From the NCBI GenBank assembly GCA_028716565.1, contig JAQUPL010000009.1:1-51225 (forward strand): a DNA stretch of 51,225 bases, in the 5' to 3' direction. The position numbers and the translations under genes were made by a program. Each line of letters begins with the position of its first letter. Within the stretch, counting starts at the first letter, position 1. The notes beneath the pieces are model-generated. The model saw nothing but the letters and a program-made list of their open reading frames with translations, did no database searches and was not told the origin of the DNA. Shown piece by piece: positions 967 through 36,389 of the stretch. Source of the stretch: Candidatus Omnitrophota bacterium (GTDB taxonomy: Bacteria; Omnitrophota; Gorgyraeia; Pluralincolimonadales; Pluralincolimonadaceae).

Positions 967-2940
967 ATGGCATACCAAAACAAAGGAGCAATGGCCGCAA
1001 CGATAGTGGTTGCCGCGAGCGACAGCCTGAACAAGGCCGCCGCGAACTACGTGTGCGACGGGACTGCGGATGACGTTGAGATCCAGGAGGCGATCGACGC
1101 GCTGCCGGCGGGGGGCGGGAAGGTTGTGCTGCTGGATGGGGTGTTTGTTATATCAAATAAAATAGAATACCCCTCAATATTTGAAATGCAAGGGCAGGGC
1201 ATAGCTACAATAATTAAACTAGCTAATAATACAAACCCTGATGGAGTACCATTGGGGGTTATAGGTCTTCTTACGAATAAAGATCAAGTGGCTGGTAATA
1301 ATAAAGTTTATATTCACGACCTGGCTATTGATGGTAATAAGTTAGGTGGAAATGGTGGTGGAAACTATAATTATGGTATTAGACATATAGTTGGCTCAGA
1401 TCTTAGATTTGAAGGTCTTTTTATTACAAGTGGTTCTGGTGTGGGGATATCTGTTTCGGATGCTACGGATATTGCTATCAAGGATAATAGAATAACAGAC
1501 ATGGGGGCTTGCGGTATTGGGGCGGATTATCTCAGAAGTTGTGTTATTATGGGCAATATTATAGACGATACTGATGATGAGGGAATAGACATAAACCACA
1601 CAGGAGGCGTTGGGGGAGATATAGTAATAAGTGGCAATATATTAAATTTATCCAACAATCACGATGAAAGCGGGATAGAGATTTCATATAACACTTATGG
1701 AATGCAAAGAATTATTATCACTAATAATATAATATCCGAGTATTATATTGGTATTTTTATAAAAGGCTCAAATGGCGATGTGGCAACCGGCAAACAAACA
1801 CAGGAAAGTATTATTGTATCGGGAAACCATACTTTCAGTAATCGTCTTCATGGTATATATTTACTAGCTCTCTATGGCGCAGTGGTTAGTAATAATATTT
1901 CGGAATTAAACGCTGATAATGGTATAAGAGTTACCGGAGATACGGTTACAAGGCTACGTGTAAATAGCTCTGTTCTAGGCAATATAGTAAGTCAGAATAT
2001 GCAAGAAGGTATATTTATAGAAAGAGCCGACAGCTGTACGGTCTCTGGTAACGATGTAGGACTAAACACAAAAGATGGTATATTCTTCAGTTATAGCCTA
2101 AACTCTATTTGTGTTGGTAATATAGTCTATAATAACAGCCAAGGCACTTATAACACATATAATGGAATAACTTTAAGTAGATTTGATTATGGTCTCTGTA
2201 GTGGAAACAGCGCAGATGATTGGGCTGCTGATCTGAGCGAATTACTTACGGCTGACGCTGCTGCGGGGACAAAAATTATCCAAGTAGCGTCTACTCTAGG
2301 CTTTAGGCCGAAGCAAACAGTGACCATATCTGACACCACCCCTGATACAGAGGATGGAGTAATAGCGAGTATTGATTCTTTAACACAGCTCACATTAGAG
2401 GCAAACCTGGTAAACAATTACGGAGTAGCCCAAGCCGCTCAAATTGATGGTAAAGTCATGCAACGGAGCGGTATTATGATTCTGGATACTTCAAATAATA
2501 ATAGTGTGAAGGGAAACGCCACTCAGGGTAACGTCTCACATATATTAAATGAAGGTTCGGCAATAGAATTTGATAAGGCACCTCACTCTATCGCTCTTGA
2601 CCTCACTGGTGCTGCCACAGATATTGAAACGTTCCATGCCTCTTGTCCATGTGTCCTGGTAGGGTACACTATACTCTACAGCGTGGCCACCGGCGGCGGA
2701 GCGGGCGTAGAGATAAGAGTCGGTCGGTATCAGGACGGCGTGGCGCTCGATGGCGACTACTTTGATACCTCTAATAGTGAGTTAAATAAAGCCAAAGGTT
2801 ATTCCAAAAACTTTGTCACAGCGGACTTAACTCAGGCGGTGATTGCGGCTGGGGATACGGTAACAGTAGGCACGGCTGGCGGTAAGGCTGATACCGGCTC
2901 AGTGATAGTGATCCTGCATATAGTGGAGATGGCAAACTAG
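967..2940 (+). CDS. right-handed parallel beta-helix (pectin-lyase-like) spike / receptor-binding protein
   Basis: Many N/G/I-rich PbH1-type repeats (IISGN, GIYL, VSNN); N-terminal VAASDS..CDGTADDVEIQEAIDALPAGGG shared with the 50172 ORF. Confidence 0.85.
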   Translation: MAYQNKGAMAATIVVAASDSLNKAAANYVCDGTADDVEIQEAIDALPAGGGKVVLLDGVFVISNKIEYPSIFEMQGQGIATIIKLANNTNPDGVPLGVIGLLTNKDQVAGNNKVYIHDLAIDGNKLGGNGGGNYNYGIRHIVGSDLRFEGLFITSGSGVGISVSDATDIAIKDNRITDMGACGIGADYLRSCVIMGNIIDDTDDEGIDINHTGGVGGDIVISGNILNLSNNHDESGIEISYNTYGMQRIIITNNIISEYYIGIFIKGSNGDVATGKQTQESIIVSGNHTFSNRLHGIYLLALYGAVVSNNISELNADNGIRVTGDTVTRLRVNSSVLGNIVSQNMQEGIFIERADSCTVSGNDVGLNTKDGIFFSYSLNSICVGNIVYNNSQGTYNTYNGITLSRFDYGLCSGNSADDWAADLSELLTADAAAGTKIIQVASTLGFRPKQTVTISDTTPDTEDGVIASIDSLTQLTLEANLVNNYGVAQAAQIDGKVMQRSGIMILDTSNNNSVKGNATQGNVSHILNEGSAIEFDKAPHSIALDLTGAATDIETFHASCPCVLVGYTILYSVATGGGAGVEIRVGRYQDGVALDGDYFDTSNSELNKAKGYSKNFVTADLTQAVIAAGDTVTVGTAGGKADTGSVIVILHIVEMAN

Positions 2941-2980
2941 AGTGCGGATGAAGAGGATGAAGCTGGTATCTGTATGACCG

Positions 2981-3472
2981 ATGTATACAATAGACGAACT
3001 GATAGCAATATCTGGGACAGCGGTTATCGGCGCGAGCATCCTGGTATGGTGCTGCAAGATGCAGTGGGATCAGCGTGCAATAGGCAAGATGGTCAAGGAA
3101 TGGAAGTCGCTCGCGGATGATAATAAGGAGAAGAACCAGCATATCGAATCAAAAGTGGAGATCGTGGAGGCGAAGTGTGAGCTTATGTGCGCGTTAGTTA
3201 TGGACGATGTAAAAAACAGAAGGCACGACCTTTTCGAGCATCATTCCCCCCTTCAGCCGACGGAGACCGCCCGGGCCATGGTGCCCGACGATATAATGGG
3301 GGCTTTGAAAAGCTATAACGGCAACGGCGGCGGGGACCAGTGCATGTTGAAGGCGATCCACATATCTCAAACCGTATCGATAGAGAGACTGAACGCTGCA
3401 GCCAGGGAGAAGGGCCTCTCTCTCCTTGAGTTCATGGCGATAATAACGGATGTGGAGGTGCCTCATGAGTAA
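2981..3472 (+). CDS. membrane protein, N-terminal TM helix
   Basis: Hydrophobic LIAISGTAVIGASILVWCC followed by a helical region. Confidence 0.55.
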   Translation: MYTIDELIAISGTAVIGASILVWCCKMQWDQRAIGKMVKEWKSLADDNKEKNQHIESKVEIVEAKCELMCALVMDDVKNRRHDLFEHHSPLQPTETARAMVPDDIMGALKSYNGNGGGDQCMLKAIHISQTVSIERLNAAAREKGLSLLEFMAIITDVEVPHE

Positions 3473-11066: not shown

Positions 11067-11395
11067 TGGCCTGCCGCAATGTTGGCAGTGGCACCCAGCT
11101 CGCTTTCGAGCTCGACAAAAGCCCAAGAGAGCAGGCATTTAAGATCGCCAAGGACGTTTATCGTTCTCTTATATTGAGAGGTGACTCTATTGAATATACC
11201 ATTAAAACACATTATGGAGGAACACACGAAGAGTACGAGTTTTCTACAGGATACTACCTTTGGACGAATGACGATGTGCGGGTTAAGATACCAAGCGGTA
11301 AAGTAGGTATCAAGTTAGAATCGAACGGCAGTATCCACATATTCAGTTTAAAGGAAATCTATAGTGCAGTATTAAAGGAAGAGGTTAAATTATGA
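11066..11395 (+). CDS. hypothetical protein
   Basis: TAATG coupling; SD AAGGA. Confidence 0.55.
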   Translation: MACRNVGSGTQLAFELDKSPREQAFKIAKDVYRSLILRGDSIEYTIKTHYGGTHEEYEFSTGYYLWTNDDVRVKIPSGKVGIKLESNGSIHIFSLKEIYSAVLKEEVKL

Positions 11396-11499
11396 AGATT
11401 GATAAGTGGGGTGCTTTTGAGTTTTGGTTTCTAGGGTTTCTATGTGGGATAACAACGTTAGTATTACTATCAGTAATTTGTAATTAAGGAGTCGCAGAT

Positions 11500-12027
11500 A
11501 TGAATATAATATCGTTTGCATGGACCACGCCGGCTATCGTCGCTTGCCATAAGACGCGGACGCGGCGCCAGTGGTCTAAGGATTACGCCCAGAAGTTTAA
11601 AGGGGGGTCCGCGTGCCAGGCTTACGATAAGGGGCCGCGGGTCGGTGGCAAGCTCATCCACATTATAAGGATATTGAAGGATCCGTGGATCCAGAATACC
11701 AGTGAAATGACAGAAGATGATTTCGAGGCCGAAGGTTTTCAGTACATGCAGGACCAGGGCTTTAAATTGAAAGGTCAAGACCTTCGAGAGTTCTTCGAAG
11801 CATGGAAGGCGGCTGCAGAAGACCTTTATGTAGTGGACTTCACTTATGTATGGGATATGGCCTTTGACGAAGGGTGTGCATACAGGGAAGGACACCTTCA
11901 CGCTATTGCTTGTGGAGTACCGGATGAACCAGAAAAGCTGCCGCGGCCCCTGGGCCAAATGTGCTACGAATGCAGAAAGTCTTGTGCGAGAAAGGTGCAG
12001 AACCTGTGCAGGATCGGTGTTAAATGA
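11500..12027 (+). CDS. ASCH-like domain protein with C-terminal Cys motif
   Basis: ISF......IVACHKTRTRR, G..CQAY, EMTEDDFEAEGF pattern typical of ASCH; CYECRKSC tail. Confidence 0.65.
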   Translation: MNIISFAWTTPAIVACHKTRTRRQWSKDYAQKFKGGSACQAYDKGPRVGGKLIHIIRILKDPWIQNTSEMTEDDFEAEGFQYMQDQGFKLKGQDLREFFEAWKAAAEDLYVVDFTYVWDMAFDEGCAYREGHLHAIACGVPDEPEKLPRPLGQMCYECRKSCARKVQNLCRIGVK

Positions 12028-21322: not shown

Positions 21323-21334
21323 AATTCACCCCCT

Positions 21335-21367
21335 ATTCTACATATCCGCCGACACTAATTGACATAA
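21335..21367 (-). promoter_or_regulatory. bipartite motif copy 1 (TTATGTC-N15-ATATGTAG-AAT)
   Basis: Same spacing in five copies. Confidence 0.7.
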
Positions 21368-21393
21368 GTTATCGTTATTCTCGCAAAGTGATT

Positions 21394-21600
21394 TTATTCC
21401 GCATCCTTCTCTCTTTTTACCCTCTTCAGAACTCCCACCATACAACGAACGGCCATGGACTGTATCCTTCTCAGGTGCTCCACGACATCCATTTCGCATT
21501 TAGTGCACAGGTATACACCCTCAGAACCGGTGATACAGATGTCGAGATACCGAACCTTATCGTTCTCTTCTACACACTGGCAAATCGAACATTTCTTCAT
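21394..21600 (-). CDS. zinc-finger protein
   Basis: CSIC..CTKC. Confidence 0.55.
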   Translation of the reverse strand: MKKCSICQCVEENDKVRYLDICITGSEGVYLCTKCEMDVVEHLRRIQSMAVRCMVGVLKRVKREKDAE

Positions 21601-21615
21601 GTAAAAACCCCCCCT

Positions 21616-21648
21616 ATTCTACATATCGATTGACTCAGGTTGACATAA
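21616..21648 (-). promoter_or_regulatory. bipartite motif copy 2
   Basis: TTATGTC aacctgagtcaatcg ATATGTAG aat. Confidence 0.7.
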
Positions 21649-21655
21649 GTTATCG

Positions 21656-21925
21656 TTATTTTCGCAAAGTGATTTTGTTCCGCATCCTTTTATCCCGGAA
21701 GCAATCACATGATATAAGCTGACCGCCGCAGACCGGGCAGCGCTCCACGTCGCAGCCGAAGTGGTGGATCTCTCCGTGCTTTATCCCGCAGTCATGGCAC
21801 CGTCCGTTACTTTCGCCGAAGTGATCGCGCCGCCTGTCGAGCCATTTACCTTTATGATATATCTTGGCATGAGTACAGCCGTCCGCCGTCCTCATTTCCT
21901 GTTCGCAGTCAAGACAAACGCCCAT
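21656..21925 (-). CDS. Cys/His-rich zinc-binding protein
   Basis: CLDC..C..RCHDCG..H..GCDVERCPVCGGQLISCDC. Confidence 0.65.
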   Translation of the reverse strand: MGVCLDCEQEMRTADGCTHAKIYHKGKWLDRRRDHFGESNGRCHDCGIKHGEIHHFGCDVERCPVCGGQLISCDCFRDKRMRNKITLRK

Positions 21926-21938
21926 GAGATAAACTCCT

Positions 21939-22346
21939 TCATTTAGATTTTCGATGCTTCGCCCTTTGGTTCCAGAGCCACGATTTCAGCCTTCTTAATA
22001 TCGACATCTGATAATCCGATATCGACTCCAGGCGCAGCTCCGCCGGCGCCCGGTCACCCATAACCCGGGTAAATAAGTACGAGTAGATATTCGTCATGTC
22101 GTGATCCAGCGGACCGCAGAGCGATGCATTAGAGACATATGCCAGCGCCTCAACATCTGTGGCCAAGTCCTTTTCACCGCGAGCCACCTGCAGGAGACGC
22201 TGGGCCCGGATCTCATCGATGAGCCAGCCCGGAGTGTCTTCGCCCCATGCCTGGTTAAATACGATAATAGGGTCTGTGAGCGCCCGCGCCGCGTCGACAA
22301 GGGCTTTCTCCGTCACCTTGCTGCTTTTAGCCTTCTGTTTCGCCAT
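21939..22346 (-). CDS. hypothetical protein
   Basis: SD GAGAGG; helical. Confidence 0.55.
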   Translation of the reverse strand: MAKQKAKSSKVTEKALVDAARALTDPIIVFNQAWGEDTPGWLIDEIRAQRLLQVARGEKDLATDVEALAYVSNASLCGPLDHDMTNIYSYLFTRVMGDRAPAELRLESISDYQMSILRRLKSWLWNQRAKHRKSK

Positions 22347-22530
22347 TATAGGCCTCTTTCAGCTTCTCCTTCTCTAGGATTGGTAGGTTATCGATTCTTT
22401 CGCACTCCTGCCGCTGCCAGTCGCTCTTGGAGGTATATTCATACTCTCCGGAGGCGAATAGTTTCTTGGCCTCAGCTTTCGACACCCGGCTGATCTTCTT
22501 GGTCTTTTTATGTTGAATACATACAGCCAT
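22327..22530 (-). CDS. small hypothetical protein
   Basis: SD GAAGGAGA. Confidence 0.5.
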   Translation of the reverse strand: MAVCIQHKKTKKISRVSKAEAKKLFASGEYEYTSKSDWQRQECERIDNLPILEKEKLKEAYNGETEG

Positions 22531-22534
22531 CGCT

Positions 22535-22738
22535 CTAATCTCCTTCCTTCGTGATATATGTATACCCCATCTTGCGGGGCATCGCCCGGACCCGGCACAG
22601 CAGCTGCCACTGCAAATGCTGCGCGTTCCGCCGGGTCAAAGGCCTGTTATCACTATCATTAGGTACTCTGAGGATCCGGCACAGTTTATCGATCGCCACG
22701 CGCTGTTGAGGAGTAGCGTCATATTGTTCGACAACCAT
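22535..22738 (-). CDS. small hypothetical protein
   Basis: SD GAGGAGG. Confidence 0.5.
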   Translation of the reverse strand: MVVEQYDATPQQRVAIDKLCRILRVPNDSDNRPLTRRNAQHLQWQLLCRVRAMPRKMGYTYITKEGD

Positions 22739-22769
22739 AGGCGCCTCCTCATAGTTACTTACCGGCTTA

Positions 22770-23867
22770 CTAGACCACGTACATCGGCATCAGCAGGTGC
22801 ACATCGTGTCCGTATTTCACCATCGCGGGTCCTTTGTCAGATGTTGTCATCATCTTGATACTTGGTGCTGGAGAAAGCGACACGGTATCCCGCAGCAGTG
22901 AAGCGTTGAATGCTATCTTTCCGGATCCTTTACCCTGCACCATGAATTCCAATTTATGGCCATCCCCATCCTGTGACCATACCTTCACCCCGCCGCCGCG
23001 CTTGGTCTCTAAACGTAGAGGATGCAGCTTGAATTCCTTCTGCTTAATGACCGCCTTCAAGGCGTCCAGCATCTCGCCCCGGTCGAAGGTCATCGGCTTC
23101 AGGTTCTTGGGATCCGGATATATCTGCTTGTAGTCGGGGTAAGTGCCTTGTATCGGCCCTGTGCCTATAACGATATCCGGCGTGGAGAACGTCAGGTAAT
23201 TATCGCCGATGCACATAACTATCTTGTCCCGCTCGAAGGCCTTGAACAGCCGGATGGCTTCACCAGGGATTATGTACTGCCGGGGATCTCCCTTCTTGAA
23301 TTTATGGGCGGTGGTATACTTGACCCTCGTCGTCGCCATACGGAAACCGTCCGCGGCGCAGAGCTCTATCTCGCCGTCGAGGAACTTCAGACTCATGCCT
23401 GAGAGCACGGGTCGCGTGTCTTCAGTCGCCATCGCATAGGCCACCTTATTCACTGCCGGCACCAGCGCCGATATGATGATGGGCTTGGCCTTTTTCATGA
23501 TGAGCTTGTCCTTGAAATCAGGGAATTCTTTACCCGGCATGATATCGGTGATACACAGCGCCGTGCCCGAAGATATCTCCATCATCTTATCTTTCGAGAG
23601 GAGCGTCACGCTGGGCGTTTTCAGCGTATCCAGGAGGAGGAGCACCTTATCCGGGGAAACGCAGCAGCTGTCTCCTTTGGCCACGATCTTGGCCTTGACT
23701 TTGGTGGTTATCACCGCCGTCAGATCTGTGCAGGTTAGCTGCAGGCAGCCGTCAGCTGCCGCCAGCAGCACCATTTGCAGGATCGGCAGCGCCGAACGCT
23801 TAAACCGCGCCGCCCTCACCGTCTTGAGCGCCGATATGAGCGCTATTCTATTTACTGCTACTTTCAA
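22770..23867 (-). CDS. dnaN: DNA polymerase III beta sliding clamp
   Basis: 365 aa; LPILQMVLL, EDTRPVLSG, AADGFRM, GTYPDYKQI, IAFNASLL, LLMPM C-terminus. Confidence 0.92.
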   Translation of the reverse strand: MKVAVNRIALISALKTVRAARFKRSALPILQMVLLAAADGCLQLTCTDLTAVITTKVKAKIVAKGDSCCVSPDKVLLLLDTLKTPSVTLLSKDKMMEISSGTALCITDIMPGKEFPDFKDKLIMKKAKPIIISALVPAVNKVAYAMATEDTRPVLSGMSLKFLDGEIELCAADGFRMATTRVKYTTAHKFKKGDPRQYIIPGEAIRLFKAFERDKIVMCIGDNYLTFSTPDIVIGTGPIQGTYPDYKQIYPDPKNLKPMTFDRGEMLDALKAVIKQKEFKLHPLRLETKRGGGVKVWSQDGDGHKLEFMVQGKGSGKIAFNASLLRDTVSLSPAPSIKMMTTSDKGPAMVKYGHDVHLLMPMYVV

Positions 23868-23882
23868 TTTACACCCCCTTTG

Positions 23883-24101
23883 TTATTTTCCCCTGAAGAA
23901 CTTCAGGGCTTCATCTTTTGTTGTACCGATCACGTGGCCGCATTCCGGGCAGTCGTATGTGCTCTGTTGACAATCGCACCGCGGCTTATCCGGATAAAAC
24001 AGCAAGCCAGAGCGCGACGGATACGCTTCCTGCTGACTCGTATACACGGCGTGAAACCTGAGACGATTCAGAATCGCGCCGCAACTTGGACATTTAGGCA
24101 T
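23883..24101 (-). CDS. zinc-ribbon protein
   Basis: CPSCG..CPECG. Confidence 0.6.
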   Translation of the reverse strand: MPKCPSCGAILNRLRFHAVYTSQQEAYPSRSGLLFYPDKPRCDCQQSTYDCPECGHVIGTTKDEALKFFRGK

Positions 24102-24104
24102 ACG

Positions 24105-24584
24105 TCACCCCCTTCCAATTTTATGCAAAGGCGCCGGTGCGCCCCATTCAGCGCTCTCATACTTGGGCAGCGCCGTTATCGCCAAATGAATTAGGTGCTC
24201 AATAAAGGCGTGCGCTTCCGACGCCATCCACCCATCGTGCTCGCATGATTGGTAAGAGTAGCAGTTGCAGCACTTTATAACCTGTGTCGGCTCATATATT
24301 GGCCACATCATTTGACAGTCGCGCTCATCTATAACGTATGTCTCGCCAACTTCTCCCGGCAGGTTTGCGTAGTCGGCGTCGGGATACCTTGCGCGCACTG
24401 ACTTTATATTCTCCTGCCAGAGCATGTTAGCGACTCCAATCTGGCTGGATATCTCGCAGCGGTCAAGAGTATGGCGCTCTTCATTCCAATACCATGAGAA
24501 ATCTCCGCCGGACTTCATCCCGAAGAGTATGGCCGCCTTAATCATATACATGATTTCGTACCTGCTAGTTATAAAACAACTCAT
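24105..24584 (-). CDS. phage/plasmid hypothetical protein (CYSYQSCEH..W motif)
   Basis: SD AGGAGG; preceded by a bipartite motif copy. Confidence 0.6.
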   Translation of the reverse strand: MSCFITSRYEIMYMIKAAILFGMKSGGDFSWYWNEERHTLDRCEISSQIGVANMLWQENIKSVRARYPDADYANLPGEVGETYVIDERDCQMMWPIYEPTQVIKCCNCYSYQSCEHDGWMASEAHAFIEHLIHLAITALPKYESAEWGAPAPLHKIGRG

Positions 24585-24598
24585 AGCTTAACCCTCCT

Positions 24599-24631
24599 AT
24601 CTTACATATCGATTGACTCAAATTGACATAA
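24599..24631 (-). promoter_or_regulatory. bipartite motif copy 3, just downstream of a small terminator-like hairpin
   Basis: TTATGTC aatttgagtcaatcg ATATGTAA gat. Confidence 0.7.
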
Positions 24632-24656
24632 AAGCCGGTTCCGGCAACTATCGCCG

Positions 24657-24980
24657 TTAGCATATTAGGTTTATAATGTCGCCCACCGTCTTCAACTCTT
24701 GCGTCCGGCCAAGTTCAACAATGCGATATCCTGGCGAGTCTTCTTCAAAAGCATCCTTATCTACACTTTTATCAAGGTGCCGGCGCGGGTGCATCCTGCC
24801 TTCACCCCACCATTTCTTCATCAGTTTCCGGGCTTTGTTATCAGCGGACTCCGATGTTCTAGCCCAAAATATTCCAGAGGAGTCATATTCATACTCTCCG
24901 TCGTGCTGAATAAATTCAACATAGAACGGCTTCAGCCCGCCCTTTTTCGTCCCGATCGGTGCGTCCGGATTGTACCTCAT
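24657..24980 (-). CDS. hypothetical protein
   Basis: Start moved to ATG 24980 (SD GGGGGTG). Confidence 0.5.
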   Translation of the reverse strand: MRYNPDAPIGTKKGGLKPFYVEFIQHDGEYEYDSSGIFWARTSESADNKARKLMKKWWGEGRMHPRRHLDKSVDKDAFEEDSPGYRIVELGRTQELKTVGDIINLIC

Positions 24981-24982
24981 AG

Positions 24983-25360
24983 CTATTTCACCCCCGCTTT
25001 CTCCTTCCTTCTGAAGGTTATGCCGTAATGCCCCTGACAGGCGCGGCAATATGTGTCACTCCTATCTCCGCCACACTCTGTTATCTCTCCCGTTTTTTGG
25101 TTCTGCCAAGCTCTGATATCAACGTCGTCCGACCCACAGTTATCGCAAGTCGCAATCTGCTCCTCGTCCACGGCGTCGGACAGCGCAAGCAACATCGACT
25201 CCCTGGCGCTCTTTGCCACGCGTTCAGACCCGAACATATGAGCGCCATCCATCATCTGGAAGACACACTCGCATACTTCCAGCGCTTTGCCCTCTTTGCA
25301 GGCGTCAATGAGCGTCTTGAAGCGAAAATACCAGGAATTACCTCTCTTATTGTTAGCCAT
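24983..25360 (-). CDS. hypothetical protein with C-terminal zinc ribbon
   Basis: SD AGGGGG; CDNCG..CRAC. Confidence 0.55.
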   Translation of the reverse strand: MANNKRGNSWYFRFKTLIDACKEGKALEVCECVFQMMDGAHMFGSERVAKSARESMLLALSDAVDEEQIATCDNCGSDDVDIRAWQNQKTGEITECGGDRSDTYCRACQGHYGITFRRKEKAGVK

Positions 25361-25589
25361 CGTTGTTGCCCCCTTCTGAACAATCGTCAACGCTTTGAAT
25401 ACCGTCACCTTCCCATTCCCCTTCGACTTCAGCATTACAAACAGAACACCGATAGTCAGATTGCTGGGGGAAAATGTCGGCGGGTTCATACCTCTGAAGT
25501 TTGTCATCCCAGACATACTCGTCGTCGTCTCGGTGCATGTTGACGGTATCGATTTCACCGCAGTTCGGACACTTTATCTTGCCTGCCAT
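25353..25589 (-). CDS. zinc-ribbon protein
   Basis: CPNCG..CSVC. Confidence 0.55.
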   Translation of the reverse strand: MAGKIKCPNCGEIDTVNMHRDDDEYVWDDKLQRYEPADIFPQQSDYRCSVCNAEVEGEWEGDGIQSVDDCSEGGNNDG

Positions 25590-25634
25590 TCAGAACCCCC
25601 TTTAACATATTCAGTGGCACATTACACCCCTTCT

Positions 25635-25673
25635 AAACAAAAGTAGCGGACAACGAACCGCTGCCCGCTACTT
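25635..25673 (-). terminator. intrinsic terminator
   Basis: GTAGCGG..CCGCTAC stem with G-U extension on the minus strand, then TTTTGTTT. Confidence 0.75.
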
Positions 25674-25758
25674 AAATATCCACCAGCCCATGGAGCTTAC
25701 GCGGCACTCGCCACTGTCCGTAATATCTGATAGCTGGCGGCTATTACCACCTATACTA

Positions 25759-26181
25759 TTAATTTATATCTAGGGCTACGATAACGCCCTTGTCCTTCAT
25801 GTCCTCTAACTCGGCTTTTAACTCTTTGTTCTCGGCCTCGGCATCCTCATCCACTTCAGCGTTATCATCGTCAATAATGATGGCTTGGAGCCCTGTCCGC
25901 CCGTACACATCATCGACCACGCCGCCGGAGACACAGATATAGATTTTCTCGACAGGATAAACATTGCCGACTTCGACACCGGCATAAATCGAGCTTCGCC
26001 GGAAGTTATCAGTCCATTTCTTATCGCACGCATTGCAAGTCATGTTTTGACTAGCTATTTCGCCGTCAACCTCAATAGAACCGCCTTCTATCTGGTCACT
26101 CTCACAAAAGGGACAATTTGCACCGCCGCTTTCGATATAGTCACCAACTTGCTCCGATGTTAGACTGCACTTTTTAGGCAT
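25759..26181 (-). CDS. zinc-ribbon + acidic hypothetical protein
   Basis: CPFCES..CNAC. Confidence 0.55.
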   Translation of the reverse strand: MPKKCSLTSEQVGDYIESGGANCPFCESDQIEGGSIEVDGEIASQNMTCNACDKKWTDNFRRSSIYAGVEVGNVYPVEKIYICVSGGVVDDVYGRTGLQAIIIDDDNAEVDEDAEAENKELKAELEDMKDKGVIVALDIN

Positions 26182-26362
26182 AGGTCACCCCTTCTCCTGT
26201 TTTGGTTTTATAGGTATTATCTTCAATACCCGCGAGACCACAGTATTGGGTACAGGTTGCTCTACTTTTCGACCTGTGACGTGGTAAAAGAAGTCCTGCA
26301 TATTCCTGCGCGTCTTGTCGGTTACCACCATTCCTAAATTATCATCCACAGTACACCCCCTG

Positions 26363-26605
26363 TTAAAAACCTAATTCATGCGCATTAATAGCGTCAGTTT
26401 CCTCTTGAGTATACGGGTAGAACTCCATCTCGGTCATAAGATGCAGGCGGTCAACAATGACCTCTTGCACGGCTTCCCGCACGATGTCTATAATCTCCAT
26501 ATCGTGCTCTATCTCTTTACCAGACAGCTCTCTGAGCAGCTCCTCAATGGCGCTTTCTACACAGTCCTGCCTGTCAATCTGGTTGGATGTCAGCTCTTCT
26601 GCCAC
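26363..26605 (-). CDS. acidic hypothetical protein
   Basis: SD AAGGGGGTG. Confidence 0.5.
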   Translation of the reverse strand: MAEELTSNQIDRQDCVESAIEELLRELSGKEIEHDMEIIDIVREAVQEVIVDRLHLMTEMEFYPYTQEETDAINAHELGF

Positions 26606-26616
26606 AGCACACCCCC

Positions 26617-26820
26617 TTATTTAGTTATAACCAGCTCGCTCGTCTCTTCGAGATTATACCCTCTGTTGTGGAGCTCATTCTGAAGGGCTGTGAGTAATAC
26701 CATGTCTCTCGGATTGTAACACTCCAACTTGTAGATAGCGGAGTACATCGCTCGCGCTTCAGACTTCAGCTCGGCATCAGTCCGAATCTTGGCATATTGG
26801 TCATAGGTAATAACCGACAT
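26617..26820 (-). CDS. small hypothetical protein
   Basis: SD AAGGGGGGTG. Confidence 0.5.
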   Translation of the reverse strand: MSVITYDQYAKIRTDAELKSEARAMYSAIYKLECYNPRDMVLLTALQNELHNRGYNLEETSELVITK

Positions 26821-26989
26821 GAATATCACCCCCCTTGAATCGGCCTATTCGTTGAAAGCCCGCCCACCACGTCAAGGTCAGGCCGTCGGGCAGGGATGTA
26901 GGGGGATGTCCCCCAGTTAAAGAGAGTCCCCCATTGTCAAGGGCAAAGCCCTAATATTTACGCATAGTCCACCCCCTTTTTATACGCCA

Positions 26990-27255
26990 AGTTGTACGCT
27001 GCGCCCGGGCGGATCCGGCAGGGCGCACGGTCGATCCGATCTATTGGTGTTCTTGGTGGGTCGCGAGCCCGCACTTCCCTTCTCACTTTTGCCGAGTTTA
27101 TGACGGTATAGCGACCACGCATAGCAGTCGCAAACAGTCGGTCTCGGTCTGGTGATACCTGGTGCTTGAACCAAGACACCCCCTGCGAGCTAATAGCCCA
27201 CCCGCTACCGCCATCGACTATATGCCAGTGACCAGGCCTGATGGCGGCAGACGGC
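26990..27255. ncRNA. structured intergenic region, candidate ncRNA
   Basis: Nested stems 27046-57/27170-80, 27091-96/27143-48, 27111-15/27127-31, plus hairpin 27205-15/27240-50. Confidence 0.4.
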
Positions 27256-27261
27256 GTGCGG

Positions 27262-27444
27262 TTAGCTGCCGATGGCAACTGCGCCGATTACCTGGTACTT
27301 CTGCCCCGTAGCTGGGTCGATAACCTGCCCGAAGAAGCCCTTCTTGCCCGTGCTGAAGGTCTTCTCATAGGCGGCGGTCACAACGAGCTGGTTAATCCCC
27401 AGACGCTGTGCTTTCGGCTTGTCTTCTGCTTTCTTCGTTGGCAT
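27262..27444 (-). CDS. 60-aa basic beta-rich protein
   Basis: SD AAGGGGGTG; KTFSTGKKGFFGQV..KYQV. Confidence 0.6.
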   Translation of the reverse strand: MPTKKAEDKPKAQRLGINQLVVTAAYEKTFSTGKKGFFGQVIDPATGQKYQVIGAVAIGS

Positions 27445-27575
27445 ATAACACCCCCTTATTAAATTCTTGGCCTGATAGGCCTACTGCTGGGCGCAAAGCG
27501 CTCAGGCGGCAGTGAAGACATTACATCTTCTGCCCCGTTCTACGCCTTGTGCCCAGAGATAGGGTATCAGCAAGG

Positions 27576-27917
27576 CTACGCCGCACAGCGTGCAAATAGC
27601 GCCTTCATCTTCTTGATTTGGCTCCTGTCATACCCTTCACAATACTGATTGAGGTTGACCGTGATACCCTTCGGAAGGGTATCAGGATTTTTAAAAACAC
27701 GTTCCGCATTGTACATCTGAGAACCACCCTGTTTCTTCACGGGCTTGAGCGCAATCACGACGCCCCGATAAGTGAGGTACTTGTAAACCTCGTCCTTGCC
27801 GGATCTCGCCCTCTTCTGCGCTTCAATCTGGTCACTGCATTGTTTGCAGTATCCAGCTTTAACGCCCATTGCAACTGGGCGGGACTCGCAGATGATACAC
27901 TTCCTTCGTTCTCTCAT
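27576..27917 (-). CDS. zinc-finger basic protein
   Basis: SD AAGGGGG; CIIC..CKQC. Confidence 0.6.
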   Translation of the reverse strand: MRERRKCIICESRPVAMGVKAGYCKQCSDQIEAQKRARSGKDEVYKYLTYRGVVIALKPVKKQGGSQMYNAERVFKNPDTLPKGITVNLNQYCEGYDRSQIKKMKALFARCAA

Positions 27918-27999
27918 CGCGAACCCCCTTATTCAATTTTAGTGTTCTTGAACCTGTTGAAAGCCTTAACCGAAGTCAAGGCCTTCCGCAGTGCCAAGA

Positions 28000-28830
28000 A
28001 TGACACAGCGCCCCCTAATCATCAGAGGGGGACTGTCTCACGATACAGAACCTAATGAAAGTCCTTTGACCGCTTGAGCACGACCGTCTAGGACTGCTAA
28101 AGACGGGTACTTCCCTTATCGGTCGGGGTCTTAAGGGCTTGCTACCGCCCACGTCTACTCCGTTTGTCCTATACTCACTGTGAACCCTACAGAGCCTCTA
28201 CATGAGGGTATAGGAGCGAGTAAAGGGCTTCGCAGACCGCACCCCATCCTCTTGGTTGGTGGGGGAAATCCACCACAGCCGTATAAGGGCGCATCGTGCC
28301 CTATCCCTACCGCTTTAAGGAAGGGTAGAGGATATGTACCACTCCTCGACGTTTTAGCGACTCGTCGTGCGTCGGGTCTTTTTGTTGATTTAGGCCAACA
28401 AGTCCCCGTGTCTTAGCCGTTTCGCATAGTACCAGCCTATACGCACGTGCAGGCAAGCAACACGGCTACCTGCCTATACCTAGTCCTTATCCCCGCCGGC
28501 GCAGCTCCACCGTAGAACCCCTAGATAGGCATCAGGGTTGCGATCGGCGGGTGTCCCAACGTATAGCCCCAGGGTTAGCATGAAGTCCTAAGTCCCCCGT
28601 CATAGAGACCAGCCCGCAGGTGGTGACATTCCGGGCTTAGGATCGTCGTCCCCTGGATCAAGGGACGATGGGATGAGACTCTTGAGCCTAACGGCTCATA
28701 GATGGCTATATGCGTTGCAATTGATTCACTTACGCCTATCCCTATGGGATAGAATGCCTTAATTAAGATTTGCGCAAGCTATCAAAGGTCGCATATAGCC
28801 ATCTATCAACCGATAGACGTTTGCATTGCT
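28000..28830. ncRNA. large highly structured non-coding region, candidate long ncRNA(s)
   Basis: No credible ORF; at least 12 hairpins including a 17-bp perfect IR (28698-28714/28790-28806) and GUGA and UAAC tetraloops. Confidence 0.55.
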
Positions 28831-28833
28831 CCT

Positions 28834-28866
28834 ATACTACATATCGCAGGAGCATAATCGACATAA
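28834..28866 (-). promoter_or_regulatory. bipartite motif copy 4, pointing into the structured region
   Basis: TTATGTC gattatgctcctgcg ATATGTAG tat. Confidence 0.7.
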
Positions 28867-28895
28867 TAAAGCGGTAGTCCTATTGACTACCGCTT
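28863..28895 (-). terminator. intrinsic terminator after the sigma-like gene
   Basis: 11-bp stem AAGCGGTAGTC/GACTACCGCTT followed by TATTAT on the minus strand. Confidence 0.7.
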
Positions 28896-28918
28896 CACTA
28901 TACCGTTTTGTGCCGTCT

Positions 28919-28951
28919 ACTATACCTATCGACTAGGCATAATTGACATAA
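28919..28951 (-). promoter_or_regulatory. bipartite motif copy 5, overlapping the 3' end of the sigma-like gene
   Basis: TTATGTC aattatgcctagtcg ATAGGTAT agt. Confidence 0.6.
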
Positions 28952-29616
28952 GTGCTATACTCTGTGAGTATATTCGGGCGTGATGCAATCCATCGGCGCA
29001 TTATGCTTTGTTCTAGTTTGGAAGTCGCATATCCAGACAATCTCTTATTTACGATGGACTGTATATGCTTTGGTAGTTTGTTATATAGCAACCTTGCGTC
29101 TATACGTGCTTCACACTCTATTTCCCCCATAAGCAATTCCGAGTGATATGCCATGCGGTCGATAGCATCTTGACCGTAGTTTCCGCCGTCTTCTGCATCC
29201 GCCATACGTTCAATAGAATCTAGGTTGTATTGGCTATGTAGTTTGAAGGCCTTCCAAAAATCCTTCCAATCACATCTAGCTATAGCGTAAGCCAATTTCT
29301 CATCCTTTACACGTTTTGTTAATAGTGTAAGTGATAATTCTTGCATTAAGTCGGCGCGTTCCTCCTTCGGCGCTTTGCGACTGAAGATATACGCATATTT
29401 GAGCGCTATGCGTTGTTCTCTTGGGAGTTTGTTTATCTGCTGTAGAAATTCGTTGACGTGTCCTTCGAATTCCCCTTCAATTTGTATAGCACTGGAAAGC
29501 ATTTTTGCTATGCTTCTATAGGTTGTATCGTGCTTTTGGATTGCCTCCGGTTGTGCTTTGAAGGCCGTTTTTAACTCTGTTTTTGTTGCTTTGCGACTGA
29601 TAACCTTGCTATTCAT
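28933..29616 (-). CDS. RNA polymerase sigma-factor-like protein (ECF/group 3-4-like)
   Basis: ERADLMQELSLTLL and AYAIARCDWKDFWK resemble region 2 (EDLxQE, W/Y..IARN...D..R); LYNKLPKHIQSIVNKRL resembles the region 4 entry; region 4 HTH looks degenerate. Confidence 0.5.
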   Translation of the reverse strand: MNSKVISRKATKTELKTAFKAQPEAIQKHDTTYRSIAKMLSSAIQIEGEFEGHVNEFLQQINKLPREQRIALKYAYIFSRKAPKEERADLMQELSLTLLTKRVKDEKLAYAIARCDWKDFWKAFKLHSQYNLDSIERMADAEDGGNYGQDAIDRMAYHSELLMGEIECEARIDARLLYNKLPKHIQSIVNKRLSGYATSKLEQSIMRRWIASRPNILTEYSTYVNYA

Positions 29617-29699
29617 TTTGATACCCCTTTTTTTAATTTTTGATACGTTCGAACCTGTATTCAATTGTGTTTTCCGTCGGAGCACCTCCCATATCAAAA

Positions 29700-29728
29700 A
29701 TATTACATCGTATTTCGTGATAAGTCAA
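29700..29728 (-). promoter_or_regulatory. sigma70-type promoter of the sigma-like gene
   Basis: TTGACT-N17-TAATAT. Confidence 0.7.
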
Positions 29729-36100: not shown

Positions 36101-36333
36101 TAAGTCTCTTCCCTTCTGAAGTCGTGTGAAGTCGCATACCTATCGAGATCGTCCTGAGCTTCCTTTTCTGTTGCCCGGATCGGCAGCGCTTGGCTCTTTA
36201 GCCGGTGCGTGCCTTTCGTGTATGGGTGCTTTTGATATAGCGTCATCCACTTGTCATCCCTGCAGCTGATTCCTGTACTTACAAAAACGAGTCTGGGTGG
36301 ATTCTCTGGGGTGTAATATCTAATTCCTACCAT
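36100..36333 (-). CDS. hypothetical protein
   Basis: SD GGGAGG; first gene after the divergent promoter. Confidence 0.5.
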   Translation of the reverse strand: MVGIRYYTPENPPRLVFVSTGISCRDDKWMTLYQKHPYTKGTHRLKSQALPIRATEKEAQDDLDRYATSHDFRREET

Positions 36334-36349
36334 AGTAGCCTCCCTTCAC

Positions 36350-36389
36350 TTGACAAAGCCACGATACACGATTATAATCCCCTTGTCAA
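36350..36389. promoter_or_regulatory. overlapping divergent sigma70 promoters
   Basis: Plus TTGACA(36350)-N17-TATAAT(36373); minus TTGACA(36389)-N17-TATCGT(36366). Confidence 0.8.

Follow-up and report, generated by a model that had tools for sequence, protein, structure and literature searches.

A sigma-like gene, a repeated promoter-like motif and a large structured RNA in a virus-like element from a landfill metagenome

Sigma cascades of phages are a classic paradigm of which few examples have been characterised. With gp36 of phiEco32 and gp47 of Salmonella phage 7-11, the host holoenzyme expresses a viral sigma factor that redirects host polymerase to a few near-identical promoters of later genes; gp36 uses a single promoter element, tAATGTAtA, with the start 6-8 bp downstream, and gp47 uses bipartite promoters of the form GTAAtg-16-aCTA (PMC8948821). 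Promoters of extracytoplasmic function (ECF) sigma factors have AAC at -35, CGT or CGAC at -10, a spacer of 14-17 nucleotides (nt) and a -35-proximal T-tract (PMC5758882). Here we analysed a stretch of 51,225 nt (positions 1 to 51,225 of contig JAQUPL010000009.1; the window), which covers almost all of the contig of an uncultivated virus-like element recovered from a landfill metagenome. Its minus strand carries a gene for a sigma-like protein of 227 amino acids (aa), designated P0001, five copies of a bipartite motif and a structured non-coding RNA of about 0.8 kb, and we think it probable that they belong to a temporal transcription cascade in which the sigma-like factor reads private promoters. 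Such a circuit would be of the phage sigma cascade type, and the RNA linked to it is new. Comparisons were made with nine related contigs found via the 227-aa protein and 37 found with a DNA pattern of the RNA only (numbered loci such as L001).

Like the two phages, the window combines a viral sigma-like gene under a host-type promoter with an over-represented motif on the coding strand upstream of other viral genes. The core of the window's motif (ATATGTAG) is similar to the gp36 element tAATGTAtA, and the gp47 promoters, GTAAtg-16-aCTA, are bipartite, as are the TGTAAC-17-CGAT sites in the window's relatives. P0001 differs from the phage factors in having no sequence similarity to them detectable by tblastn or PHROG; a large non-coding RNA is an apparent target together with replication ('middle') genes, in place of late structural genes; and the upstream element in the window's clade lies just 11-12 nt from the core. 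ECF sigma factors (E. coli RpoE; B. subtilis SigW, SigX and SigM) share with P0001 a two-domain size of 190-230 aa (PMC5758882), a region 2.2-like D-L-x-Q-E motif and a region 2.3/2.4-like helix, and the candidate promoters of relatives have TGTAAC or TGCAAC with a T-tract at -35, CGA or CGT at -10 and a 17-nt spacer. P0001 differs in falling below Pfam thresholds, in having no recognisable region 4 and in having no Foldseek match to solved sigma structures. No anti-sigma gene is evident, and the sigma-like gene has no autoregulatory promoter upstream, carrying instead a motif copy in its 3' end.

The motif in the window and in relatives

The initial annotation had reported five copies of the motif, all on the minus strand with a fixed 15-nt spacer, and this was borne out: TTATGTC-N15-ATAKGTA has five exact matches in the window, all on the minus strand (21339-21367, 21620-21648, 24603-24631, 28838-28866 and 28923-28951), against a chance mean of 0.65 and with five reached in 0 of 100 shuffles. 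When three mismatches were allowed, the extra matches were at chance level only. Scored with a position weight matrix (PWM) of the downstream core, the five copies reached 18-28 bits and the next-best site 13 bits, which is the shuffle background. The extended minus-strand consensus is TTATGTCAAT-N10-(T)CGATATGTAG(n)ATAGG; the start coordinates given by the initial annotation take in the trailing nnRTAG. The five extended copies are listed here, with SD denoting the Shine-Dalgarno sequence:

21332..21367, minus strand: motif copy 1, TTATGTCAAT-N-CGGATATGTAGAATAGG; adjoins the SD and TTG start (21322) of an 89-aa gene
21613..21648, minus strand: motif copy 2; adjoins the SD and ATG (21600) of a 68-aa gene; local duplication with copy 1
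24596..24631, minus strand: motif copy 3; adjoins the SD and ATG (24584) of a 159-aa gene
28831..28866, minus strand: motif copy 4; after a strong hairpin, at the head of the structured RNA
28916..28951, minus strand: motif copy 5; its TTATGTCAAT part is coding sequence for the C-terminal residues (..YVN..) of the sigma-like protein, with the core after the stop codon

The placements first described for the copies largely stand, with three adjoining the SD of the next gene (starts 21322, 21600 and 24584), one in the 3' end of the sigma-like gene itself (copy 5) and one at the head of the structured non-coding region (copy 4). Two copies had been placed after terminator hairpins, which is correct for copy 4 (folding free energy, dG, -26.8; z -6.3); before copy 3 the hairpin is no more than a weak GCCGG-AA-CCGGC stem that the terminator scan did not list. 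The 159-aa gene after copy 3 heads a block that contains the DNA polymerase III beta clamp gene, and copy 5 overlaps the final codons of the 227-aa gene, upstream of a hairpin at 28863..28902. The identity between copies 1 and 2 extends about 40 nt further upstream, 21368-21410 and 21649-21690 being near-identical on the minus strand (AGGATGCGGAAyAAAATCACTTTGCGArAATAACGATAAC). Since this repeat is coding in one copy and largely after the stop codon in the other, the duplication is recent and local, and the two copies are not fully independent. No common RNA fold was found for the motif in the three copies examined (z -0.2, +1.6 and -0.25), which speaks against a structured RNA element and argues that the motif acts as DNA. 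Recognition by a T7-like single-subunit polymerase was also rejected, as all open reading frames (ORFs) in the window are at most 657 aa and none is a polymerase gene. A degenerate motif-like stretch, TGTAAT-N10-ATATGTTAAAGGGGG, lies at 25596-25626 on the minus strand ahead of an ATG at 25589 and is preceded by a strong terminator (25641-25673); it falls below the PWM cut-off and is possibly a weak sixth promoter.

Conservation across clades refutes the idea that the motif is merely a recent repeat. The closest relatives, L001 and L002 (71-73% protein identity), keep it at the same four places, with counterparts of copy 3 at L001 14208 and L002 14237, and it occupies matching positions in L001, L002, L003, L005 and L006. 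Orthologues of the 89-aa gene that follows copy 1 are present in L003, L005 and L006 (28% identity, E 4e-11), and all of them keep the motif directly before the SD while the remaining intergenic DNA is unalignable; the same retention of the motif amid diverged flanks holds for this gene across L001-L006. The arrangement of copy 5, at the 3' end of the gene, recurs in the distant relatives L007, L010 and L023, and in L031 the site lies downstream of the stop codon; together with the intergenic copies of the window, the L031 site argues that the DNA element matters on its own. Throughout the relatives, motif sites are on the coding strand, 24-47 nt ahead of start codons.

Across clades, (C/G)GAT(A/T)(A/T)G is invariant and most clades have TAG(n)ATAGG after it, and the upstream hexamer varies from clade to clade. 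In sister clades, at least 19 unique sites have the hexamer, at the -35 position, exactly 17 nt before (C/G)GAT(A/T)(A/T)G, often with a T-tract after it:

TGTAAC in L003, L005, L006, L013 and L019; TGTGAC in L009
TGTCAC in L028, L035 and L042; TGCAAC in L037

The window's clade, together with L010, L033 and L031, has the hexamer TGTCAA at a spacing of just 11-12 nt (14 unique sites). Both types of hexamer and spacing occur in L005, and one site in L006 has a 13-nt spacer owing to a 4-nt deletion. As sequence patterns, the sister-clade sites of the TGTAAC-type-N17-CGAT form match ECF promoter architecture. The initial annotation had singled out -10-like hexamers of the TAGAAT type, and the sigma-70-like TAGAAT and TATAGT do lie inside the core, but as -10 elements they would place the start inside or after the SD and were rejected. 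CGATAT is the more likely candidate, because a start near ATAGG would retain the SD in the mRNA. Metagenomic comparison alone yields a near-complete promoter grammar: a -10-like core that does not vary, upstream elements of at least three classes, and an unusual short-spaced class.

The sigma-like protein, its promoter and its helix classes

28933..29616, minus strand: sigma-like gene, 227 aa, P0001 (family profile, hhalign, structure prediction)
29700..29728, minus strand: host-type promoter TTGACT-17-TAATAT of the sigma-like gene, conserved in L001-L006
29728..29762, minus strand: two palindromes, ATTCGATATATCGAAT and ATATACTTTGAAGTATAT, conserved in L001-L006, the second overlapping the -35

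In P0001 a disordered linker joins a region-2-like helical domain at the N-terminus to a helix-turn-helix-like domain at the C-terminus, and more than 140 clusters of homologues were found in metagenomes. A profile of 72 family members compared with the PDB (E<=10) gave seven matches, all of them sigma factors aligned on region 2 (E 0.19-1.3), and hhalign placed P0001 residues 72-129 on residues 31-94 of E. coli RpoE (P 5.8e-4, probability 29%). Sigma70_r2 (PF04542) is the most frequent Pfam family among the relatives (13 of 72), at sub-threshold scores with a best E of 2e-4, and some relatives are labelled as sigma-24 family by the Joint Genome Institute (JGI). P0001 carries the region 2.2 core-binding motif (D-x-x-Q-E; here E-R-x-D-L-x-Q-E), in which D89 is invariant and Q92 near-invariant (>=90%) over the 72 diverse members, both being invariant in closer sets, and these residues align with the D and Q of RpoE DVVQEAF. 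The AYAIARCDW helix fits the region 2.3/2.4 pattern. From these sequence signals, P0001 would seem to be a very divergent sigma-like factor, a reading we hold with somewhat better than even confidence.

The promoter TTGACT-17-TAATAT that had been proposed ahead of the sigma-like gene was confirmed at 29728-29700. Distant relatives have other host-type promoters ahead of this gene (for example, TGTTATAAT in L009), and the conserved host-type promoter fits an order in which host polymerase produces the factor and the factor serves the motif promoters. The palindromes ATTCGATATATCGAAT and ATATACTTTGAAGTATAT are probable operators, and the heptamer of the motif core, TCGATAT, also occurs in ATTCGATATATCGAAT. 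Upstream of the sigma-like module in L006, an IS605 OrfB/TnpB gene is inserted at 2363-3424.

The extreme C-terminal helix of the protein falls into three classes, which track three classes of upstream element:

helix (R/K/N)PxxLA(S/E/Q)Y: upstream element TGTCAA-N11/12
helix GYKLLI: upstream element TGTCAC or TGCAAC at N15-17
helix HSxILAE(F/Y)(R/K): upstream element TGTAAC or CTAACA at N16-17

These pairings would constitute a natural set of orthogonal factor/promoter pairs that is directly testable.

The proposed cascade and its rivals

Host sigma-70 RNA polymerase would transcribe the 227-aa gene from TTGACT-17-TAATAT, flanked by the two palindromic operators. In the N-terminal domain of the product, E-R-x-D-L-x-Q-E would serve as the region 2.2-like core-binding motif and AYAIARCDWKDFW as the region 2.3/2.4-like aromatic helix, and the product's C-terminal helix-turn-helix would read the upstream element. 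On host core polymerase, the factor would initiate at the five private promoters, with the invariant CGATATG as a -10-like element, TTATGTCAAT as the upstream element and the start site near the conserved ATAGG, just ahead of the SD. The motif promoters would in turn drive a short hairpin RNA, the 0.8-kb RNA with the zinc-ribbon operon, and replication ('middle') genes. Promoter function of the motif and its link to the protein are likely from the comparative patterns; sigma function, polymerase binding, the start sites and the dependence of the motif on the protein are inferred.

This private circuit was first put forward in the initial annotation. Conservation of the motif footprint, the ECF form in sister clades, the helix tracking and the conserved host-type promoter speak for it, and the 11-nt spacing, which is not that of a normal -35, does not. 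For the proposed sigma identity there are region 2 signals in sequence (all sub-threshold) and no sigma fold by Foldseek.

Several observations weigh against the cascade and the sigma identity of P0001. The protein has no match in Pfam (curated threshold) or PHROG, and sigma region 4 (PF08281/PF04545) was not detected in it, with stray sub-threshold matches in three to four relatives; its own sub-threshold region 4 match covers residues 56-78, outside the C-terminal domain, where an LPxxIxxIVxKRLxG motif and two helices resemble region 4 by eye only. Foldseek of the full model (predicted local distance difference test, pLDDT, 71.7) against the PDB returned nothing at E<=0.001 (sigH, 6kop_F, ranked 21st at E 7.6), a model of residues 30-131 (pLDDT 91.9) gave 36 weak PDB matches with no sigma factor among them, and the full model against the viral structure library gave no sigma or other significant fold. 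On the DNA side, the window's TGTCAA at N11 lies outside the ECF spacing of 14-17 nt, and with a spacer of 11 here, 13 in one L006 site and a mixture in L005, it is doubtful that the sites form a rigid -35/-10 pair. At the 3' end of the gene, TTATGTCAAT doubles as coding sequence (..YVN) and is under dual constraint. L028 is a partial exception to the helix tracking, and the helix classes are also clades, so that phylogeny confounds the comparison and the tracking between protein and motif sequences is suggestive rather than proof of a link. A tblastn search of P0001 against 50,697 phage records gave no match, and a search seeded with E. coli RpoE for building an ECF profile recovered near-identical RpoE proteins only and was of little use. 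The family is invisible to Pfam, PHROGs and Foldseek.

The main rival, which we consider unlikely, would have a host sigma factor initiate and the 227-aa protein act as a lambda CII-like DNA-binding activator on the upstream element, often a GTCAAT-N4-GTCAAT repeat with a 10-bp pitch, recruiting host holoenzyme to a weak core. That Foldseek found no sigma fold, not even for the confident domain model, agrees with this, and the variable distance between upstream element and core (11, 12, 13 and 17 nt) suits a tethered activator; direct GTCAAT repeats are present in several copies, and TAGAAT and TATAGT within the core are sigma-70-like. However, an activator leaves the region 2.2/2.3-like motifs and the sigma-only PDB matches unexplained, and with TAGAAT as the -10, transcription would begin within or beyond the SD. 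In form, the sites of sister clades are those of textbook ECF promoters and not of activator-dependent sigma-70 promoters, and the motif has no TTGACA-like -35, though the virus uses consensus sigma-70 promoters elsewhere (for example, a perfect TTGACA-17-TATAAT at 36350), which argues that the motif is a separate promoter class and not the host's standard.

It is very unlikely that the reader of the motif is a host ECF sigma factor to which the adjacent viral protein is unrelated. The TGTAAC-N17-CGAT sites of relatives would fit, since they follow general ECF rules, but the class of upstream element shifts with that of the viral protein's C-terminal helix, the motif is embedded in or adjoins the viral gene in all clades, and the window's TGTCAA-N11 form misfits ECF spacing. 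Least probable is that the motif is not a promoter at all but a repressor operator, a replication or packaging site or an RNA-level element (a translational operator or processing site): the core adjoins the SD in three copies and TCGATAT recurs in the palindrome upstream of the sigma-like gene's promoter, yet two copies stand ahead of no gene, the strict coding-strand orientation and the position after terminators fit promoters, no RNA structure is shared, and the bipartite form matches ECF geometry in relatives.

The structured RNA and the surrounding genome

27945..28830, minus strand: structured non-coding RNA, with a conserved core at 27945-28693 and a variable 5' segment at 28694-28830
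28863..28902, minus strand: hairpin with a U-rich tail between copies 5 and 4 (dG -26.8 kcal/mol, z -6.3)
27576..27917, minus strand: zinc-ribbon-like protein, 113 aa, CxxC...CxxC, with 36-41% identity to genes at the same position in L007 and L009

The RNA of about 0.8 kb at copy 4 is widespread and uncatalogued, and is the most novel element of the locus. It occupies a gene-free gap of about 1 kb after the sigma-like gene that is conserved in all relatives, and nhmmer also detected it in the distant loci L007-L009. Among six aligned sequences, 236 pairs were predicted, 70 of them with compensatory changes, and the RNA folds better on the gene (minus) strand in all six (alifold -261, compared with -215 for the opposite strand). 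For one domain, a covariance model of 142 positions recovered 38 copies (33 distinct), with 91.5% of cells paired as opposed to about 43% in slid controls and compensatory change in 20 of 27 pairs. Rfam gave no match at gathering score across the window and nothing relevant at E<=10 for 27400-29000, and a scan of IMG/VR with the RNA pattern gave no matches. In its length of 0.75-0.9 kb, its extensive, covariation-supported structure and its origin in a mobile or viral element, the RNA resembles GOLLD, ROOL and OLE (PMC12286853), but it differs from them in having no Rfam match even at E<=10 and in being strictly tied to an upstream sigma-like and a downstream zinc-ribbon gene rather than to transfer RNAs (tRNAs).

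The sigma-like ORF lies directly upstream of the RNA on the same strand in all 29 informative loci, defined as those with at least 900 nt upstream of the RNA, 20 of which were found via the RNA alone. Directly after the RNA, the window, L007 and L009 have a gene for a CxxC protein of about 110 aa; the 113-aa protein of the window has no family match. This co-occurrence argues for a conserved module of sigma-like gene, motif promoter, RNA and zinc-ribbon gene. The tie to the factor and its promoter provides a concrete handle (promoter and partner genes) on the function of a large RNA. A bolder and unlikely proposal joins the sigma-like protein and the 110-aa zinc-ribbon protein with the 0.8-kb RNA in a single functional unit, in which the RNA would be not just a leader but would act with or on the factor. 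If so, the RNA could serve the viral holoenzyme as a 6S-like decoy or timer, or be the scaffold of a transcription-controlling ribonucleoprotein, and its place beside the gene in every informative locus despite the loss of other synteny would be explained. The opposite strand of L007 carries a LAGLIDADG endonuclease gene (11307-11750) where the RNA has its 3' end.

The stem of the hairpin at 28863..28902 is kept in relatives through compensatory changes, and the hairpin would terminate transcripts of the sigma-like gene. Distant relatives have one promoter at the 3' end of the gene, then the hairpin, then the RNA, with the equivalent hairpin forming the 5' part of the large RNA's transcript; the window's clade has the promoter duplicated, one on each side of the hairpin. 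The minus-strand segment 28863-28915 consists of a conserved A-rich stretch (AACAGAAUA in relatives), the hairpin and the U-rich tail, and an RNA of about 50 nt from copy 5, with the hairpin as its 3' end, is possible.

Recognisable genes elsewhere in the window include those for the DNA polymerase III beta clamp (22770-23867), beta-helix spike-like proteins, an integrase-like protein and DUF5131. Searches of the window found no tRNA or transfer-messenger RNA (tmRNA) genes, and Pfam and PHROGs applied to P0001 and the neighbouring proteins gave no match except the clamp gene. Nothing similar to the window was found among deposited phages and plasmids by megablast and tblastn, and the sequencing runs found to hold its sequence were landfill or wastewater DNA metagenomes only, with no RNA runs among them. 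Divergent host-type promoters occupy both strands at 36329-36389, with the perfect TTGACA-17-TATAAT on the plus strand, and this segment is probably an early control region.

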